Of a stretch of DNA of 5,087 bases, positions 795 through 5,087 are shown piece by piece. Where the stretch lies: the IMG/VR virus record IMGVR_UViG_3300000357_000189. One strand, written 5' to 3'. Position 1 is the stretch's first letter. Every line of letters starts with the position of its first letter. A program made the translations under genes and the position numbers. The notes below the pieces were generated by a model. The model had not been told where the DNA came from. It worked only from the letters and a program-made list of their open reading frames with translations, and did not search any database. This DNA comes from a virus (taxonomy: Duplodnaviria; Heunggongvirae; Uroviricota; Caudoviricetes).

Positions 795-983
795 GTGTTA
801 AGCACTGATCGGTTTATACGTGAAAAAGAATGCGAAAAACTAACCGGCCTTAGCCGTACGTGTCGCTACCGCCTGGAAAAGGCCGGACAATTCCCATCAC
901 GTCGTAAACTTGGCGGTCGTTCCGTTGGCTGGTCTTTATCCGAGGTTCTGGCCTGGAAGGATAGCTGCAAGGCAGTTCATTAA
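795..983 (+). CDS. alpA: AlpA-family (Vis/excisionase-like) small DNA-binding transcriptional regulator, 62 aa
   Basis: GTG start at 795 follows the Shine-Dalgarno AGGGGGG (784-789). Translation VLSTDRFIREKECEKLTGLSRTCRYRLEKAGQFPSRRKLGGRSVGWSLSEVLAWKDSCKAVH matches the AlpA pattern (HTH ...TGLSR.T.Y.L...FP...LG.RSVGW...E...W). The ORF-track start at ATG 714 has no RBS and would give an atypically long N-terminus. Position directly downstream of int is as in CP4-57/P4-like elements. Confidence 0.8.
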   Translation: MLSTDRFIREKECEKLTGLSRTCRYRLEKAGQFPSRRKLGGRSVGWSLSEVLAWKDSCKAVH

Positions 984-1333: not shown

Positions 1334-1507
1334 TCAGTCTGGTTCAGTTCGTTGCCATACCTGCAATGAGCGCTTTTCCCTGTACTCTTTAAGGAATTGC
1401 TCAAGGGCAAAAGCACATGGCGCGAATCTTTCTGATTCATGCTCTATCTTTCTGCGCCGTCTTTTCCGTGCCGGTGATAATGTTTTGGTCAATTCTTTAT
1501 CGGTCAT
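1334..1507 (-). CDS. Small basic hypothetical protein, 57 aa from ATG 1507 (alternative start ATG 1522 gives 62 aa)
   Basis: Minus-strand translation [63 protein letters not shown] (complement of 1515-1518) sits 7 nt upstream of ATG 1507; the upstream ATG 1522 has no SD. It lies 57 nt downstream of the RHH gene and upstream of the terminator. Family not recognised. Confidence 0.55.
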
Positions 1508-1564
1508 TGTGTTGTCCTGCATAGCAATGCGCCGTAATACCTTACACCACGGCGCTGATGGTGA

Positions 1565-1744
1565 TTACTCTGGTTCTTTGGCCTTGCGCCGCTGGCGATA
1601 TTCAACTTCTCGTTTTAATGCCGCAGTAACAAATTGCCCCGTACTTTCGCCAGGCATTTTTACCGCCTCAACATTGTTCATAACTTCATGCGGAACCCTT
1701 GCCGCAACGGTTTGTGATTTTGCGTTTACCGCTTTTGTCGCCAT
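1565..1744 (-). CDS. Ribbon-helix-helix (Arc/MetJ/CopG-like) putative transcriptional repressor, 59 aa
   Basis: Minus-strand ORF below the ORF-track size cutoff: ATG at 1744-1742, stop TAA at 1567-1565. Translation [59 protein letters not shown]. The layout beta-strand ([10 protein letters not shown]), helix A (MNNVEAVK), G-x-S/T turn (PGEST) and helix B ([14 protein letters not shown]) fits an RHH fold. SD GAGGGG sits 8 nt upstream of the ATG. It is transcribed divergently from the palindrome-bearing promoter region. Confidence 0.65.
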
Positions 1745-1773: not shown

Positions 1774-1847
1774 AGTATGCAGGAAAAAAAATAAGTGTTC
1801 AACACTTGACGTGTTTAACACCTGGGTTTAAATTGGTGTTCAACACC
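1774..1847. promoter_or_regulatory. Divergent promoter/operator region with three GTGTT-N-AACAC palindromes overlapping sigma70-like promoter elements
   Basis: Palindromes at 1795-1805 (aaGTGTTcAACACtt), 1811-1821 (GTGTTtAACAC) and 1836-1846 (gGTGTTcAACACc). Rightward promoter: -35 TTGACG 1806-1811, 17-bp spacer, -10 TAAATT 1829-1834. Leftward promoter on the minus strand: -35 TTGAAC (complement of 1797-1802), 17-bp spacer, -10 CATACT (complement of 1774-1779). Operators overlap both -35 elements and the rightward +1 region. Confidence 0.55.
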
Positions 1848-1943
1848 TTGTTGGCGCAAGGTGCAGAAACGACGAAACCCGGCAGTGCGCTAACACTAAC
1901 CGGGCTTCTAACCACCAACGATAGCGAAAGTATCGAGGTAGCT

Positions 1944-2139
1944 ATGAGAAATCATACCACACACCCGCAAGGGCGGGACTCGCACAACCTGAATAAATAC
2001 ATNNNNNNNNNNNNNNNNNNNNGCACAACCGCGCGTGATTACCATTGAGGCCACCAGCGAACAGGAAGCACGCCAGCAATCTCCGGCTGGCTGCGTGATG
2101 GTATTTGCTGCCCGTATTCGTCAGGGGGTAGGCTTATGA
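1944..2139 (+). CDS. Hypothetical small protein, first gene of the rightward operon; spans N-run 2003-2022
   Basis: ATG 1944 follows SD GAGG (1935-1938): [19 protein letters not shown]... After the gap, another frame reads [38 protein letters not shown] with stop TGA 2137-2139 overlapping the next ATG (ATGA). The only frame open before the gap is the one containing ATG 1944. Confidence 0.45.
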
Positions 2140-2451
2140 GCCAGGAAATCACACTACAACAGGCAGCNNNNNNNNNNNNNNNNNNNNNNNNNNNNNNNNN
2201 NNNNNNNNNNNNNNNNNNNNNNNNNNNNNNNNNNNNNNNNNNNNNNNNNNNNNNNNNNNNNCCACCAAATCGAAGTTATTTGCGCACTGGCAGAGGATTA
2301 CCCTAGCATGATGACCGACAGCGAATCAGGGGCAATCATCGGCTTACTTAAACGCCTTAGCGGTGAGGTCTGCGTATTCCTGAGCGATGAACAGGAAAGA
2401 AGAACGCTTATTTCTAACGAAAAAAAATGCGGAGGGGTACATGTGCAATAA
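2136..2451 (+). CDS. Hypothetical protein (about 105 aa); spans N-run 2168-2261
   Basis: ATG 2136 follows SD GGGGG (2124-2128): [10 protein letters not shown]... After the gap: HQIEVICALAEDYPSMMTDSESGAIIGLLKRLSGEVCVFLSDEQERRTLISNEKKCGGVHVQ with stop TAA 2449-2451. It overlaps the next start by 11 nt. Confidence 0.5.
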
Positions 2452-2662
2452 AACCACACCGGACGCAGCCGCCGCCGCGCTCACTACGCTGATGCACGCG
2501 CTTATTGATATTTCTGTTATTGCTGACAGGGCGCATAAACACGCAGCCAGAGAATCAGAATGCATCTTCCATTTAGCATTTGTGCAGCTAAAAGCCGATC
2601 AGGCACTGGATAAGGCCGGAAAAATTATCATGGCTGATGTGCAGGAGGTGCACCATGCATAA
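2441..2662 (+). CDS. Hypothetical protein, 73 aa
   Basis: ATG 2441 follows SD GGAGGGG (2431-2437): MCNKTTPDAAAAALTTLMHALIDISVIADRAHKHAARESECIFHLAFVQLKADQALDKAGKIIMADVQEVHHA. The stop TAA 2660-2662 overlaps the next start (ATGCATAA). The ORF-track start at 2387 is less likely because it lacks an RBS. Confidence 0.6.
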   Translation: MCNKTTPDAAAAALTTLMHALIDISVIADRAHKHAARESECIFHLAFVQLKADQALDKAGKIIMADVQEVHHA

Positions 2663-3020
2663 TCTGTCAATTTCTGACCTTAACAGCATTCAGTTTGATG
2701 AGAAATTTACCGGGCAGTTGCTGGTCAATGTGGAGAACGGGCGCATAGTGCGTAATTATCACCTGCCGGATGGTGCAATTGCCGGAAGCGTTGAAGCATT
2801 GCTGGAACTGGCGGAACGTGCGCGACTGATTAAGCCGTCAACGAGCCATCACGATGATGATCTGCATTTTACCGGATGTATGGTGAGTCACTACGAAAAC
2901 GGCGTCGAGGTATCCTGTGAACGGCTGCGTGATGATTGCTGTTTCGGCACACTGCCGGAATTTATCGAGTTGCTGACCAGTTGCGGTTATCAGGTCATTC
3001 AGGGGGGTAAACATGCGTGA
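2655..3020 (+). CDS. Hypothetical protein, 121 aa, with a His/Cys-rich C-terminal half
   Basis: ATG 2655 follows SD GGAGGT (2644-2649): MHNLSISDLNSIQFDEKFTGQLLVNVENGRIVRNYHLPDGAIAGSVEALLELAERARLIKPSTSHHDDDLHFTGCMVSHYENGVEVSCERLRDDCCFGTLPEFIELLTSCGYQVIQGGKHA. Uninterrupted by N-runs. The stop TGA 3018-3020 overlaps the next ATG 3013. Confidence 0.65.
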   Translation: MHNLSISDLNSIQFDEKFTGQLLVNVENGRIVRNYHLPDGAIAGSVEALLELAERARLIKPSTSHHDDDLHFTGCMVSHYENGVEVSCERLRDDCCFGTLPEFIELLTSCGYQVIQGGKHA

Positions 3021-3331
3021 TGATCGTTTTAATTCCCTGAAACAGGAATTTTCCGGCGTTCCTGATGATGCGGCTGATGCGCTTTCGTCAATGCNNNNNN
3101 NNNNNNNNNNNNNNNNNNNNNNNNNNNNNNNNNNNNNNNNNNNNNNNNNNNNNNNNNNNNNNNNNNNNNNNNNNNNNNNNNNNNNNNATTAGAGCGGCTT
3201 TTTTCTTACTTTCCACGAGAGAATATAAATCAACGGGGCTTGATGTACTGAATATCGCCGCCGATTATGCGGAATATGTGGCAGAGGCGCGTTATAGAAG
3301 AAAATTTCCTGAGGATGTAAGCCATGCGTGA
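3013..3331 (+). CDS. Hypothetical protein (about 105 aa); spans N-run 3095-3187
   Basis: ATG 3013 follows SD AGGGGGG (3001-3007): MRDDRFNSLKQEFSGVPDDAADALSSM... After the gap: IRAAFFLLSTREYKSTGLDVLNIAADYAEYVAEARYRRKFPEDVSHA with stop TGA 3329-3331 overlapping the next ATG 3324. Two separate short genes cannot be excluded. Confidence 0.45.
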
Positions 3332-3645
3332 TATTTACCACGAAACAATAGACCGCGCATTTCTTGCACTTTCTCACAGTGAAAACATGCTGGAAATATT
3401 GCGNNNNNNNNNNNNNNNNNNNNNNNNNNNNNNNNNNNNNNNNNNNNNNNNNNNNNNNNNNNNNNNNNNNNNNNNNNNNNNNNNNNNNNNNNNNNNNGCT
3501 TGAAACACTTGGCGACAATGAACGCGACAAACAAAAATCAAGAATTGCCACGGCATTAATAACGCTTCTTGAGCCTGTAATAATGGAACTGCAAGAAATA
3601 GATCTATTGCACGACAGATATAAAGAACAGCACACCGGAGAATAA
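3324..3645 (+). CDS. Hypothetical protein (about 105 aa); spans N-run 3404-3497
   Basis: ATG 3324 follows SD GAGGA (3311-3315): MRDIYHETIDRAFLALSHSENMLEILR... After the gap: LETLGDNERDKQKSRIATALITLLEPVIMELQEIDLLHDRYKEQHTGE with stop TAA 3643-3645. The frame differs across the gap. Confidence 0.45.
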
Positions 3646-3650
3646 AAATA

Positions 3651-4035
3651 ATGAAACTTAAATATTCTGGCTTAACTGCCAGTGGCAACACTCACCCTAA
3701 ATTTACGCGCGGCGATATTTACCGCGACCAGTACGGCGGCACGGTAATGATTAAGGGCGTGGAAGAACGGCGCGTAACCTACCGCCGTGAAGGTTACGAA
3801 TATGATTGCGTGATGCCTGTTTATCAGTTCCGGCGTGATTTTTCTCTGGTACAGACCGCGCCGCATAACGTGTCCACCAGCAACGCCAGGGCACGGGCAA
3901 ACATCCAGAAGCTGAAAACCATGATTAACGGANNNNNNNNNNNNNNNNNNNNNNNNNNNNNNNNNNNNNNNNNNNNNNNNNNNNNNNNNNNNNNNNNNNN
4001 NNNNNNNNNNNNNNNNNNNNNNNNGTAAAAAATGA
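3651..4035 (+). CDS. Hypothetical protein (about 125 aa); 3' end within or just after N-run 3933-4024
   Basis: ATG 3651 follows SD GGAG (3637-3640): MKLKYSGLTASGNTHPKFTRGDIYRDQYGGTVMIKGVEERRVTYRREGYEYDCVMPVYQFRRDFSLVQTAPHNVSTSNARARANIQKLKTMING... After the gap, either TAA 4026-4028 or TGA 4033-4035 is the stop; the latter overlaps ATG 4032 as ATGA, like other junctions in this operon. Confidence 0.55.
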
Positions 4036-5087
4036 AACTGGCACCGAACGTAAAACAGCAGTCACGCGGCATAAAACACAAAGAAACAGAAGTCATTATT
4101 TTTGCGGGTAGTGATGCCTGGTCACACGCAAAACAATGGCAGGAACATGACGCGCGTATGGCCGGAGATAATGAGCCTCCTGTGTGGCTTGGGGAGCAGC
4201 AGTTATCCGAACTGGATAAGCTGCAAATTGTGCCNNNNNNNNNNNNNNNNNNNNNNNNNNNNNNNNNNNNNNNNNNNNNNNNNNNNNNNNNNNNNNNNNN
4301 NNNNNNNNNNNNNNNNNNNNNNNNNNNNNNNNCGCATATTCAGGGCCGGATATCTTGCGCCAGTAATGATAAAGGCGATTGGTCAGAAGCTGGCGGCAGC
4401 AGGCGTACAGGATGCAAATTTTTACCCTGATGGTATGCACGGTCAGAAGGTGGAGAACTGGCGCGAATATCTGGCCCGTGAGCGCCAGAATCTTTCTGAT
4501 GGTCTGGTCATTGAGCTTCCGGTAAAGCAAAAGGCGCAACTTTCGCAGATGGCGGANNNNNNNNNNNNNNNNNNNNNNNNNNNNNNNNNNNNNNNNNNNN
4601 NNNNNNNNNNNNNNNNNNNNNNNNNNNNNNNNNNNNNNNNNNNGCGCGCAGCTGCTTGCCGATCGCTTTGATGGCGTTTGCGTACATCCTGAAAGTGAAA
4701 TCGTTCACGTATGGCGCGGCGGGGTATGGTGTCCGGTCAGCACAATGGAACTTAGCCGCGAAATGGTGGCGATCTATTCAGAGCACAGGGCCACTTTCAG
4801 CAAGCGCGTAATCAATAACGCCGTGGAAGCGTTAAAAGTTATTGCCGAACCAATGGGCGAGCCGTCCGGCGATTTGTTGCCGTTCGNNNNNNNNNNNNNN
4901 NNNNNNNNNNNNNNNNNNNNNNNNNNNNNNNNNNNNNNNNNNNNNNNNNNNNNNNNNNNNNNNNNNNNNNNNATGGTGCGCTTGACCTGAAAACGGGGGA
5001 ATTTTCCCCGCACACGCCGGAGAACTGGATCACCACGCACAACGGCATTGAGTACACGCCACCAGCACCAGGGGAGAACATCCGCGA
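4032..5087 (+). CDS. Primase/helicase-type replication protein (P4-family primase / D5_N-like region), 3' end outside window; interrupted by N-runs 4235-4332, 4557-4643 and 4887-4972. The first segment (4032-4234) could be a separate upstream ORF.
   Basis: Coding-looking segments in successive frames: MKLAPNVKQQSRGIKHKETEVIIFAGSDAWSHAKQWQEHDARMAGDNEPPVWLGEQQLSELDKLQIV (4032-4234); ...YLAPVMIKAIGQKLAAAGVQDANFYPDGMHGQKVENWREYLARERQNLSDGLVIELPVKQKAQLSQMA (4333-4556); AQLLADRFDGVCVHPESEIVHVWRGGVWCPVSTMELSREMVAIYSEHRATFSKRVINNAVEALKVIAEPMGEPSGDLLPF (4646-4886); GALDLKTGEFSPHTPENWITTHNGIEYTPPAPGENIR (4975-5085). LADRF...W..W and G.LDL.TGE..PH.PE motifs are, from memory, characteristic of the D5_N / P4-type primase C-terminal region. 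Confidence 0.6.

Follow-up and report, generated by a model that had tools for sequence, protein, structure and literature searches.

Several described systems resemble parts of the locus that we analyzed. The immI region of phage P22 has two ribbon-helix-helix (RHH) repressors, Arc and Mnt, acting at the divergent promoters Pant and Pmnt, but it has no significant sequence similarity to our locus and its predicted RHH protein, YlcI. The P22 repressors bind as tetramers to single operators of 21 and 17 bp, whereas our locus and its relatives have three or four separate boxes of 11–13 bp, with a variable core and flexible orientation. Also, P22 is a phage, while our locus lies in a satellite, and the operon that it would control leads to a primase. 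The binding sites of the RHH proteins Omega (of pSM19035), CopG, and ParG are built from short units that need not be palindromic, that are arranged as direct or inverted repeats over promoters, and that each bind one RHH dimer. This is similar to what we propose here, except that those units are contiguous 7-bp heptads, while ours are 11-bp units with GTG/CAC ends that lie 16–46 bp apart.

Among satellites, the Stl/Rpr repressors of Gram-positive phage-inducible chromosomal islands (PICIs; the SaPIs) share the logic and the position of the switch proposed here: the repressor gene is divergent from the excision/replication operon (PMC6092414). As with our cassette, the location is between int and pri, and there are many specificities (PMC6092414). 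However, Stl is a large helix-turn-helix protein that is unrelated to RHH proteins, and its derepression by helper proteins has been demonstrated. For repressors of Gram-negative PICIs, we found nothing in the literature that describes a YlcI-type repressor. The “repressor” of EcCIMP1 is PerC/ANR-like and unrelated to YlcI.

The immunity regions of P4 (PLE, CI RNA, and seqA/seqB/seqC) and of P1 (immI, with c4 RNA-icd-ant) are found in the same genomic slot as our locus (PMC10111431). In each case, an early promoter precedes a kil-like or icd-like gene and the primase, and follows a vis/alpA homolog. P4 and P1 also have an RNA layer that acts on the leader (PMC10111431). In contrast, the RNA that we predict in our locus comes from the opposite strand and would thus be a true cis-antisense RNA, and our locus contains a proposed protein repressor cassette as well. 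P4-like satellites (L046 and L047) carry the YlcI cassette too.

The stretch of DNA that we analyzed (the window; 5,087 nt) appears to belong to a Gram-negative PICI of E. coli, with int, alpA, primase, and capsid genes. Gram-negative PICIs span 10–20 kb; their int, alpA, and pri genes share one direction, and a capsid gene is often present (PMC6092414, PMC10111431). E. coli EcPF5 has the identical locus, as an island of ~11.4 kb inserted in tqsA, with int, alpA, primase, SSB, major capsid, and decoration genes; via this identical locus, both the gene content and the size fit the description. Induction and packaging of the window's element by a helper phage are putative. Of 5,426 complete E. 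coli genomes, 487 carry the 116-bp switch (9%; this counts only the TTCAA box type, named for the central bases of the box). For a sister box type, more than 5,000 assembly blocks were listed.

Sites and promoters in the window

These genes surround the proposed switch:

795 to 983, plus strand: alpA (Pfam Phage_AlpA, E = 5e-17), converging on ylcI
1334 to 1522, minus strand: ORF62 (phrog_21027), co-directional with ylcI and downstream of it
1565 to 1744, minus strand: ylcI, encoding a 59-amino-acid protein of the YlcI/YnfO family, a predicted RHH DNA binder and proposed repressor
1944 to 2139, plus strand: icd-like gene (host cell division inhibitor Icd-like; NCBIfam NF033153, 69.9 bits; RefSeq annotation of the identical locus)
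2136 to 5087, plus strand: rest of the rightward operon, with six small genes, DUF4222 (from 3651), and the primase (from 4032 to beyond the window's end)

The rightward operon begins with the icd-like gene, in which a masked run of N does not preserve length. From icd-like to primase, the eight genes lie end to end or overlap, and no gap exceeds 6 nt (as seen in L001), which supports the claim of the first-pass annotation that the rightward promoter heads an operon leading to the primase. ORF62 probably follows ylcI on the leftward transcript, as a second gene; it occurs only in E. coli lineages and not in other genera.

Between ylcI and the icd-like gene are the sites and the promoters, whose positions are all consensus predictions:

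1774 to 1779, minus strand: predicted −10 of the leftward promoter, CATACT, which aligns with a TATACT that is nearly invariant across 25 loci
1793 to 1807, no strand: site 1, AAGTGTTCAACACTT, a 15-bp palindrome over the leftward −35 and next to the rightward −35
1797 to 1802, minus strand: predicted −35 of the leftward promoter, TTGAAC, read from the sequence, 17 bp from its −10
1806 to 1811, plus strand: −35 of the rightward promoter, TTGACG, from a promoter scan; TTGA is invariant across the aligned loci
1811 to 1821, no strand: site 2, GTGTTTAACAC, between the −35 and −10 of the rightward promoter (about −30 to −20)
1829 to 1834, plus strand: −10 of the rightward promoter, TAAATT, from the promoter scan; TAnnnT is conserved at 17-bp spacing
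1835 to 1847, no strand: site 3, GGTGTTCAACACC, a 13-bp palindrome over the predicted rightward transcription start
1844 to 1863, plus strand: inverted repeat CACCTTG-TTGGCG-CAAGGTG, a predicted 5' hairpin of the rightward mRNA that overlaps the right arm of site 3

A pattern search of the window found exactly three copies of GTGTT-N-AACAC (1795–1805, 1811–1821, and 1836–1846), and on direct reading, all three palindromes of the first-pass annotation are present, including the extended copies of 15 and 13 bp. In a repeat search, the three copies came out as a single family, spaced 16 and 25 bp apart; these distances are not helically phased. For the pattern GTGTTNAACAC, the window has three exact matches and one match with a single mismatch; we expected 0.12 matches with at most one mismatch and fewer exact ones, and four were reached in 0 of 200 shuffles. 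The inexact match (795–805) is on the start codon of alpA. We considered it as a fourth site but treated it as a chance match, because no relative carries a copy of its own box near alpA or outside the switch. (In the 3–19 kb of each locus, we found just one other match, with one mismatch, in L049.)

The rightward promoter has 17 bp between its −35 and −10, and we infer that transcription starts at about 1841. As had been proposed, sites 1 and 2 flank the rightward −35 (TTGACG), and both abut it. Site 3 begins 1 bp past the −10 (TAAATT) and covers the predicted start, as had also been proposed. The leftward promoter implied by the first-pass annotation, with its −35 under site 1, matches the consensus at just 8 of 12 positions, which is below the threshold of the promoter scan, so the scan did not report it. 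However, its −10 is at the position of the family-wide TATACT. The leftward promoter is weak in the window.

Site 1, whose center is 56 nt from the ATG of ylcI, is conserved in TTCAA-type elements from E. coli, Edwardsiella, Kosakonia, and Klebsiella, and in one P4-like element. Across 12 elements of the same box type, just 6 of 39 columns within the boxes are variable, versus 56 of 77 columns elsewhere in the intergenic region (Fisher p = 3.5e-9). The variation inside the boxes is mostly at the unconstrained central base. By inspection, relatives also have an equivalent of the inverted repeat at 1844–1863, changed in sequence.

Box types and YlcI across relatives

More broadly, about 45 related loci, spanning about 15 genera, share an 11-bp frame, GTG-N5-CAC, whose positions around the conserved rightward promoter and around the leftward −10 are fixed. 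Inside each locus, the five bases at the center do not vary, but between loci there are at least 13 types. In the 33 typed loci, box centers are found only at about 27, 56, 72, and 94–107 nt from the ATG of ylcI, and the boxes are locked to the conserved TTGAnn −35, the TAnnnT −10, and the leftward TATACT. The box at the position of site 2 (center at 71–73 nt) is present with at most one mismatch in 30 of these 33 loci, and the other three have a degenerate copy. The box equivalent to site 3 has its center at 93–107 nt in relatives and occurs in either orientation: the third box is inverted in L017, L039, L044, and L048. Among relatives, the R1–R2 spacing varies from 22 to 35 bp.

The first-pass annotation proposed a search for the same palindrome in related genomes. 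The positions and the GTG/CAC ends are kept, but the core and the palindromy vary by type. Palindromy is special to the window's box type, and most relatives have asymmetric direct repeats. The general unit is thus an 11-bp GTG-N5-CAC box that is mostly asymmetric, in direct or inverted orientation. Most relatives also have a presumed autoregulatory box on the predicted leftward transcription start, which is missing from the window. Judging from this comparison, the window has lost the leftward-start box, and only the leftward −35 box is retained. A literature search with the box sequences returned only unrelated primers.

What might read these boxes? YlcI matches NCBIfam NF041551 at 59.7 bits (cut-off 30) over residues 9–50, and the identical protein in RefSeq is named as a member of the YlcI/YnfO family. 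We predict that its fold is RHH-like. A fold search with the YlcI model returned RHH proteins, and an alignment puts YlcI in a register that agrees with Arc and CopG. G32-E33-S34 are invariant and T35 is nearly so, corresponding to the G-x-S/T-x turn that caps helix B. In the strand, polar residues alternate, with an invariant S10 and R16 and hypervariable residues at 12 and 14. The prediction that the leftward protein is an RHH protein draws on the fold search, the helix-B turn, and the strand pattern. At the sequence level, Pfam's RHH models had no match at E ≤ 5 to any of 29 members of the YlcI family (including the window's protein), a PDB sequence search with the family profile gave only noise and no sequence relative, and hhalign of the family against RHH proteins gave probabilities of just 3–5%. 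(We left out the leftward “protein” of L038, which is an assembly artifact of poly-A/T and simple repeats.)

We found nothing relevant in the literature on the function of YlcI, YnfO, or DUF3950. We rejected YnfO from E. coli K-12 as a model for the satellite proteins: it adjoins a lambda-type cos site and has no boxes near it, so the satellite YlcI proteins are a distinct subgroup.

The box core, with its 13 or more variants, tracks a hypervariable island at residues 11–15 of YlcI. It does not follow AlpA, the Icd-like protein, ORF62, or the replicase. When we predicted the box type from the protein sequence beforehand, we were correct in 3 of 3 cases: TTCAA for KSQTIAAR (Klebsiella), TCCGA for KSKRFDVR (Salmonella), and GCTGA for KSRKLEAR (Salmonella). 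The smallest unit of natural swaps is codons 1–30 of ylcI plus the boxes. The window and L044 are 78–100% identical in the flanks but just 50–64% identical across 1650–1850, which comprises these codons and the boxes, and the boxes of L044 are changed to GTGTAAGACAC. Since L030 and L032 have the same beta-strand (KSQKIQAR) and different, although related, cores, specificity is not set by the strand alone. The N-terminus of ylcI and the boxes are within 200 bp of each other, and linkage alone would give co-inheritance.

We argue that YlcI is the reader because the 3–4 boxes of each locus are identical in concert and because other readers encoded by the element are excluded. (ORF62 was considered as a specificity partner and was rejected because it is 100% identical between TTCAA-box and GCTGA-box elements.) The sites are repeated over core promoter elements and co-vary with the predicted DNA-reading part of the adjacent regulator. 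The proposal that they are operators of the leftward RHH protein at back-to-back promoters thus has strong comparative support from the co-variation with residues 11–15. We estimate a probability of about 0.77 that the three GTGTT-N-AACAC sites are operators of YlcI and that the window is the regulatory core of a PICI.

Alternatively, YlcI might bind the boxes without being a simple repressor, which we consider unlikely. The center of site 1 is near −41 of the rightward promoter, which is the position of a class II activator, so YlcI could activate the rightward promoter or its own. However, site 1 is limited to one box type, and the boxes that essentially all relatives have in common are those in the spacer and at the start, which are repressor positions. 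YlcI might also be the autoregulating antitoxin of a type II toxin-antitoxin pair, but this is unlikely: YlcI has only the RHH core and a basic tail, without the C-terminal toxin-binding extension, and outside of E. coli there is no conserved downstream partner.

It is quite improbable that ylcI is merely linked to boxes that are read by a host or helper-phage protein, so as to match the helper's regulator. Satellites are known to sense helper proteins, and linkage within 200 bp would yield the co-inheritance. But residues 11–15 of YlcI sit where RHH proteins read DNA, and they predict the core across genera. A host reader cannot account for 13 types in one species. As for helpers, 50,697 phage records contain essentially no close relatives of YlcI; the single, distant hit is itself a 16.5-kb element, so helper-borne homologs are not an explanation.

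The first-pass annotation had named AlpA binding as an alternative. AlpA, a helix-turn-helix activator or excisionase encoded 800 bp upstream, might bind the palindromes and activate or repress the rightward operon. No other regulator of this island class has been established by experiment (PMC6092414), and the inexact copy of the motif (795–805) is on the alpA start codon. Yet the relatives have no copy of their own box near alpA, and the identity of AlpA is similar in same-box pairs (mean 52%) and different-box pairs (mean 45%), reaching 100% in both. The boxes differ between L001 and L042, and between L016 and L032, even though AlpA is 100% identical in each pair; conversely, L001 and L002 have identical boxes and identical YlcI, while their AlpA proteins are just 32% identical. 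Because the box type tracks residues 11–15 of YlcI and not AlpA, we view the switch model as supported and reject AlpA as the reader, with hardly any weight left for it.

We give equally little credence to a product of the rightward operon as the reader, with the Icd-like protein as a Cro-like feedback regulator (phrog_6196 and phrog_1743 carry the label transcriptional repressor) or the replicase using the boxes as iterons (their repetition is iteron-like), because Icd-like proteins that are 92–100% identical to the window's accompany three other box types (GGCCA, TATTT, and GTGACCACC), a single box type is paired with DUF927, AAA_25, or D5_N replicases, the same cassette also precedes a KilA-N gene where icd is absent, and the origin of Gram-negative PICIs is downstream of pri (PMC10111431).

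A putative antisense RNA over the icd-like leader

Besides YlcI and its boxes, the comparison suggests a second layer of control, which the account of the first-pass annotation does not include:

1863 to 1944, minus strand: putative cis-antisense small RNA of ~80 nt, from covariation, a strand test, and folding
1951 to 1959, minus strand: its predicted extended −10, TGgTATGAT, read from the sequence, inside codons 3–6 of the icd-like gene

The predicted RNA has two 5' helices, a GC-rich terminator hairpin, and a U-rich tail, and it is complementary to the Shine-Dalgarno sequence and the AUG of the icd-like gene. The alignment favors the minus strand: its structure has 25 pairs with 96.4% pairing, versus 80.9% for the plus strand at the same place, and 16 of the pairs have compensatory changes. 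The values for the minus strand were reached in 0 of 500 shuffles. G:U cells number 118 on the minus strand and 2 on the plus strand. In the window, the minimum free energy is −36.5 kcal/mol for the minus strand (z = −5.55) and −20.5 for the plus strand (z = −1.53). At the column of the antisense −10, TAnnnT is invariant in 30 loci, and the TG extension is found only in the window's lineage.

Given the P4-like and P1-like slot, we also considered an immunity RNA of the C4/isrK/P4 CI type on the sense strand. We rejected it: Rfam's C4 and isrK had no match in the window at E ≤ 1, and none at gathering score in 18 sequences (17 relatives and the window), and the structure favors the opposite strand. 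Instead, the Rfam model for symR (RF01809) matches at this place over its full length (model positions 1–77) in six sequences, all below threshold: the window scores 33.3 bits and five relatives score 28–40 bits, against a gathering threshold of 61 bits.

In the symE-symR locus of E. coli, as reportedly described by Kawano, Aravind and Storz in 2007, an RNA of about 77–80 nt is antisense to the 5' UTR and start codon of symE. This RNA is said to have its promoter just inside the coding sequence and to end in a terminator hairpin, while the symE promoter is reportedly held off by LexA. Our locus has a SymR-like layout, with a predicted structured RNA that is antisense to the 5' UTR and the start codon and has a terminator hairpin at its end. 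Both cases would combine a small gene for a toxic protein, an antisense RNA, and a protein repressor, which is LexA there and, we propose, YlcI here. On the other hand, the Icd-like protein is unrelated to SymE, and our locus is on a mobile element. Overall, we predict a SymR-like antisense RNA, supported by covariation, over the ribosome-binding site of the icd-like gene.

Proposed mechanism and meaning

Binding, the sign of regulation, and the transcription starts are all inferred from comparisons of sequences, and the following model is conditional on them. YlcI dimers would read each 11–13-bp box by placing the N-terminal beta-ribbon in its major groove, with the variable residues 12 and 14 and the invariant R16 in register with Q9, N11, and R13 of Arc. 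Occupancy of site 2 (in the spacer) and site 3 (at the start) would block RNA polymerase and keep the operon from icd-like to primase off. Site 1, over the −35 of the ylcI promoter, would give negative autoregulation. The antisense RNA, if made constitutively, would act in cis on the ribosome-binding site of the icd-like gene as a second, post-transcriptional lock on a first gene that is probably toxic. The N-terminal half of YlcI and the boxes would form a specificity (immunity) cassette of ~200 bp, with at least 13 types, that is exchanged between satellites. This cassette would probably keep the E. coli phage satellite silent, a type of element that is not known to have a described repressor. 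As candidates for induction, AlpA might drive read-through from upstream, antisense through ylcI and into the operon, or a helper phage might provide an antirepressor.

We tentatively suggest, at somewhat less than even odds, that this ~200-bp cassette is what has been missing from Gram-negative satellites (PICIs as well as P4-like elements): their immunity or master repressor. It would have at least 13 heteroimmune specificities, would be layered with the antisense RNA as a lock on an Icd-like toxin, and would be relieved via AlpA read-through or inactivation of YlcI by the helper.

Gram-negative PICIs are currently described as unidirectional and activated by AlpA, which is the known activator of this island class (PMC6092414). 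We find that such elements carry a divergent, uncharacterized protein of predicted RHH fold, along with matching predicted operators at the replication operon's promoter. If our suggestion is correct, then the activator-only model of Gram-negative PICIs would be reconciled with the repressor model of Gram-positive PICIs. If YlcI is a repressor, then it would define satellite immunity groups and would explain the co-residence of several related islands in a single genome. It would also provide a handle on the helper's inducing signal: one protein, 11-bp sites, and a two-residue island of specificity. With the putative antisense RNA, mobile elements would gain an RNA family that has no annotation so far and is perhaps related to SymR. 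Finally, at least 13 natural pairs of protein and operator on one scaffold would amount to a recognition code for RHH proteins and could be a source of orthogonal repressors.

The island and its proposed switch

Positions 1200–2003 of the window are 100% identical to a locus in E. coli EcPF5, where an island of ~11.4 kb is inserted in tqsA. The island contains genes for an integrase, AlpA, a leftward YlcI/YnfO-family protein, and an Icd-like protein, along with six small genes and genes for DUF4222, a primase, SSB, major capsid, and decoration proteins. This gene order is the organization of a Gram-negative phage-inducible chromosomal island (GN-PICI). The leftward ORF, which we call ylcI (59 amino acids, 1565–1744), scores 59.7 bits against the NCBIfam model YlcI_YnfO_N, and the first rightward ORF, with its ATG at 1944, is Icd-like. 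The eight genes from icd-like through the primase overlap or abut and are most simply one operon, in agreement with the rightward operon leading to the primase that the first-pass annotation described. The runs of N in the window (e.g., 1062–1159 and 2004–2022) do not preserve length, and coordinates across them are unfit for reading frames: icd-like has 196 nt in the window versus 201 nt in the identical EcPF5 locus, and between alpA and position 1200 there is a difference of 81 nt from that locus.

The first-pass annotation reported three GTGTT-N-AACAC palindromes over back-to-back promoters. Direct reading of the window confirmed all three:

1793–1807: site 1, AAGTGTTCAACACTT
1811–1821: site 2, GTGTTTAACAC
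1835–1847: site 3, GGTGTTCAACACC
1806–1811 and 1829–1834, plus strand: rightward promoter from the promoter scan (-35 TTGACG, 17 bp, -10 TAAATT)
1774–1779 and 1797–1802, minus strand: predicted leftward promoter (-10 CATACT, 17 bp, -35 TTGAAC, both as reverse complements)

A pattern search with GTGTTNAACAC found three perfect matches (sites 1–3) and one match with one mismatch, at 795–805; 0.12 matches are expected, and four were reached in 0 of 200 shuffles. A repeat finder also placed sites 1–3, which are spaced by 16 and 25 bp, in one repeat family. Given the coordinates from the scan, the rightward -35 is flanked and touched by sites 1 and 2, as had been proposed. Site 2 fills the spacer of this promoter, while site 3 begins at the base after the -10 and spans the predicted start near 1841, which is where it was thought to lie. 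The predicted leftward promoter, whose -35 lies within site 1, matches at only 8 of 12 positions and is absent from the promoter-scan output for the window, but its -10 coincides with an element that is conserved family-wide.

An inverted repeat (CACCTTG/CAAGGTG; 1844–1863, plus strand) overlaps site 3 in its right arm, where the 5' end of the rightward mRNA is predicted. Relatives have an inverted repeat of other sequence in this place, in some cases with G:T on the plus strand. The repeat may form a stabilizing 5' hairpin.

Box types and the protein that probably reads them

We compared 36 loci with YlcI relatives from other genera and further loci from E. coli, Salmonella, and Klebsiella. 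The aligned ylcI-proximal intergenic regions have a single architecture throughout. Rightward from the ylcI start codon, the order is:

a box next to the near-invariant ACAGTATAC (TATACT on the other strand, which is the leftward -10), covering the leftward promoter from about -8 to +3
an A/T-rich stretch
a conserved -35, TTGAnn
a second box directly after the -35
a -10, TAnnnT, at 17-bp spacing
a third box on or just past the -10

All boxes have the frame GTG-N5-CAC, or now and then CTG-N5-CAG. The core (the central five bases) is the same in all boxes of one locus and differs between loci. There are at least 13 cores: those in the table below and GAACA, TACTC, GAATC, and TCCG(A/T). Asymmetric cores are the majority, and their copies are direct repeats (with the third box inverted in some loci), so palindromy is a property of the TTCAA type, which includes the window, and not of the whole system. 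Related loci do keep boxes around the same promoter, but the palindromes as first described are restricted to this type.

Allowing up to one mismatch, copies of each locus's own box lie at centers ~27, 56, 72, and 94–107 nt from the ylcI ATG, with one exception elsewhere in the 3–19 kb per locus. The start-site box was lost in the lineage of the window, which retains site 1, an extra box on the leftward -35 that is specific to the TTCAA type. Four boxes, including both of these, occur in Kosakonia, Klebsiella, Pectobacterium, and a P4-like element. The copy with one mismatch at 795–805, GTGTTAAGCAC, overlaps the GTG start codon of alpA. In the relatives scanned, no copy of the locus's own box is near alpA; because their boxes are confined to the switch positions, the match at 795–805 is most likely a chance event.

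Within the TTCAA type, the boxes are conserved among related elements: across 12 diverse sequences, 6 of 39 box columns vary, as compared to 56 of 77 columns elsewhere (p = 3.5e-9), and the variation in the boxes is mostly in the central unconstrained base. The first-pass annotation had named non-conserved palindromes as a refuting outcome, and the sites withstand this check. The 116-bp switch is present in 487 of 5,426 complete E. coli genomes (254 at 99% identity or above and 224 at 90–95%). The cassette is not limited to one satellite family: the TTCAA version, with four boxes, is also found in two P4-like satellites of E. coli (L046 and L047), whose genes include those for a P2-type capsid, a Toprim primase, and "Derepression" (epsilon-like).

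By sequence comparison, box cores track the N-terminal part of YlcI. Residues 11–15 are highly variable in the family alignment, with entropy peaks at 12 and 14, and this variable island is flanked by the invariant residues N7, K9, and S10 and R16, P18, and H19.

Table. YlcI strand and box core.
SQT[VIL]AAR: TTCAA
S[KR]KLEAR: GCTGA
SQSLKSR: GGCCA
SKRFDVR: TC(C/G)GA
SQKLQ[AT]R: GAGTC
SQKMSAR: GGTGC
SQSVTAR: TAAGA
SQALRAR: TAGAC
SQMTTVR: TATTT

The assignment of GCTGA is consistent across Xenorhabdus, Pectobacterium, E. coli, and Salmonella. The mapping was also used to predict the core for three proteins before their loci were inspected, and all three predictions were correct: TTCAA in Klebsiella, and TCCGA and GCTGA for two different Salmonella proteins. 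Over residues 1–30 of YlcI, pairs with the same box average 81% identity (60–100%), versus 56% (37–87%) for pairs with different boxes. The corresponding values for AlpA are 52% (23–100%) and 45% (18–100%).

Binding of the boxes by AlpA had been suggested as an alternative, and we reject it. The AlpA proteins of the window's element and of L042 are 100% identical, but the boxes are TTCAA versus GCTGA; similarly, L016 and L032 have 100% identical AlpA and different boxes. Conversely, YlcI and the boxes are identical between the window's element and an Edwardsiella locus, in which AlpA is 32% identical and Icd is 55% identical. The other element-encoded candidates are ruled out as well: Icd-like proteins with 92–100% identity to that of the window occur behind boxes of other kinds (GGCCA, TATTT, or GTGACCACC), ORF62 (a leftward gene) is 100% identical across two box types, and three different replicase families occur with one box type.

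One locus (L044) has a replacement that is limited to 1650–1850 (50–64% identity to the window's element), which corresponds to ylcI codons 1–30 and the intergenic boxes; its flanks are 78–88% identical at 1500–1650 and 92–100% identical at 1850–2100. Its boxes are GTGTAAGACAC in place of the window's type. Together with the dissociations, this swap implies that specificity maps to the N-terminal half of YlcI and the boxes, which move as one cassette. Of the proposal that a ribbon-helix-helix (RHH) protein reads the operators, autoregulates, and represses, the reading is thus what the co-variation of core and YlcI supports.

YlcI does not match any of the Pfam RHH models or any PDB sequences. 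Its invariant G32-E-S34-T is the usual helix B cap. Aligned by profile with Arc and CopG, YlcI has weak statistical support but the canonical register, with its T12, A14, and R16 on Q9, N11, and R13 of Arc, which are DNA-reading residues. The putative N-terminal strand is not drawn in the monomer model, as would be expected of a sheet that forms between two subunits. YlcI belongs to the YlcI/YnfO family by curated model and seems RHH-like by fold, but by no curated RHH sequence model. The family is narrow, with only 81 clusters at 50% identity among 1.84 billion representatives, and it is essentially absent from 50,697 phage records.

An E. coli VCSW7 island (L040) lacks ylcI. At 2230–2470, the same slot has an unannotated CopG-like RHH ORF (MRISPELKEQFDKEAQSDGISLANWLKELGRKELL...), opposite to which RefSeq annotates a pseudogene, and two GTGACCACCT boxes of its own around the same promoter, so the slot is a general RHH-plus-operator position. 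In another E. coli locus (L041, GCA_003176855.1, 3000–3370), the interval from alpA to ylcI has a second module, apparently vestigial, with a SymR-like RNA sequence, a 59-amino-acid CopG-like RHH protein, and repeats of its own. Similarly, positions 1041–1560 of the window ("Icd-like pseudogene") may be the remnant of an older module that was displaced by cassette insertion. RefSeq places this pseudogene on the plus strand and lacks ORF62 (62 amino acids, 1334–1522, minus strand; phrog_21027, E = 1.6e-15), which is downstream of ylcI in the same direction, is 100% identical in E. coli islands of another box type, and is absent outside E. coli.

The namesake YnfO, from the Qin prophage of K-12 (L058, 4368–4990), directly adjoins a lambda-type cos site and a nohA fragment and has no repeated boxes upstream, so prophage members of the family may differ in role from satellite members. 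In NZ_AP042637.1 (L038, 1442–2389), a leftward "hypothetical protein" of 316 amino acids consists of poly-A/T and simple repeats after MAT and is almost certainly an assembly artifact that destroyed a ylcI gene. A Xenorhabdus element (L022, 5019–5087) has the Rfam int-alpA RNA (RF02996; 42 bits, above the gathering score) in its int-alpA spacer; the same spacer in the window, which is partly masked, has no match to RF02996.

A predicted antisense RNA over the icd-like leader

The 100-nt leader of icd-like is strongly conserved. Covariation, a strand bias of G:U pairs, and sub-threshold matches to SymR from Rfam point to an unannotated RNA:

1863–1944, minus strand: predicted cis-antisense RNA, ~80 nt

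The SymR match in the window is full-length (minus strand, 1943–1871, 33 bits), and five relatives have a match at the same place (28–40 bits); at Rfam thresholds, there is no membership in the C4, isrK, or SymR families. The leader alignment of 30 loci folds at -32.9 kcal/mol on the minus strand versus -9.9 on the plus strand. The 25 pairs of the minus-strand fold are 96.4% paired, with compensatory changes in 16; none of these measures was reached in 500 shuffles. On the plus strand, the same pairs are 80.9% paired, and there are 2 G:U cells, versus 118 on the minus strand. The window alone folds at -36.5 kcal/mol (z = -5.55) on the minus strand and -20.5 (z = -1.53) on the plus strand.

The RNA would start near 1944 and end near 1863, after a GC-rich hairpin and a U-rich tail. 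Upstream of the predicted start is a conserved TAnnnT inside icd codons 3–5 (TGgTATGAT in the window; 1951–1959, minus strand). The icd-like Shine-Dalgarno sequence and AUG lie within the stretch to which the predicted RNA is complementary. The arrangement predicted here parallels that of symE-symR, reportedly a small toxic gene with a repressor-controlled promoter and a cis-antisense RNA across its start (Kawano et al. 2007). The antisense RNA may be a second regulatory layer, which the first-pass annotation missed.

Proposed mechanism and relation to known switches

The boxes have fixed positions on conserved promoter elements, are identical within a locus, and co-vary with YlcI, and other element-encoded proteins are excluded. 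We propose that each box is bound by a YlcI dimer. Sites 2 (about -30 to -20) and 3 (about -6 to +7) would occlude the rightward promoter and silence the operon from icd-like to the primase. Site 1, on the leftward -35, would give negative autoregulation; in relatives, the start-site box would have that role.

AlpA is required in this class of islands, and helpers turn on the alpA promoter (PMC6092414). With alpA upstream and ylcI facing it, read-through driven by AlpA would cross ylcI in antisense and enter the operon in sense orientation. Induction by this route and by a helper antirepressor, which the first-pass annotation suggested, are equally possible. Apart from the sign of regulation and the route of induction, the original interpretation is supported.

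The logic of the switch is classical, and resembles the Arc/Mnt immI region of P22 and the omega/CopG-type RHH regulators. Its slot is held by Stl/Rpr in Gram-positive PICIs and by the PLE/CI RNA in P4. We did not find any literature on the function of the YlcI family, these boxes, or a protein repressor of Gram-negative PICIs (most subscription journals were outside the scope of this search). The YlcI protein family, the modular specificity cassette with at least 13 types, and its pairing with an antisense RNA appear to be undescribed so far. The cassette is common to GN-PICIs and P4-like satellites, and would confer immunity-type specificity.
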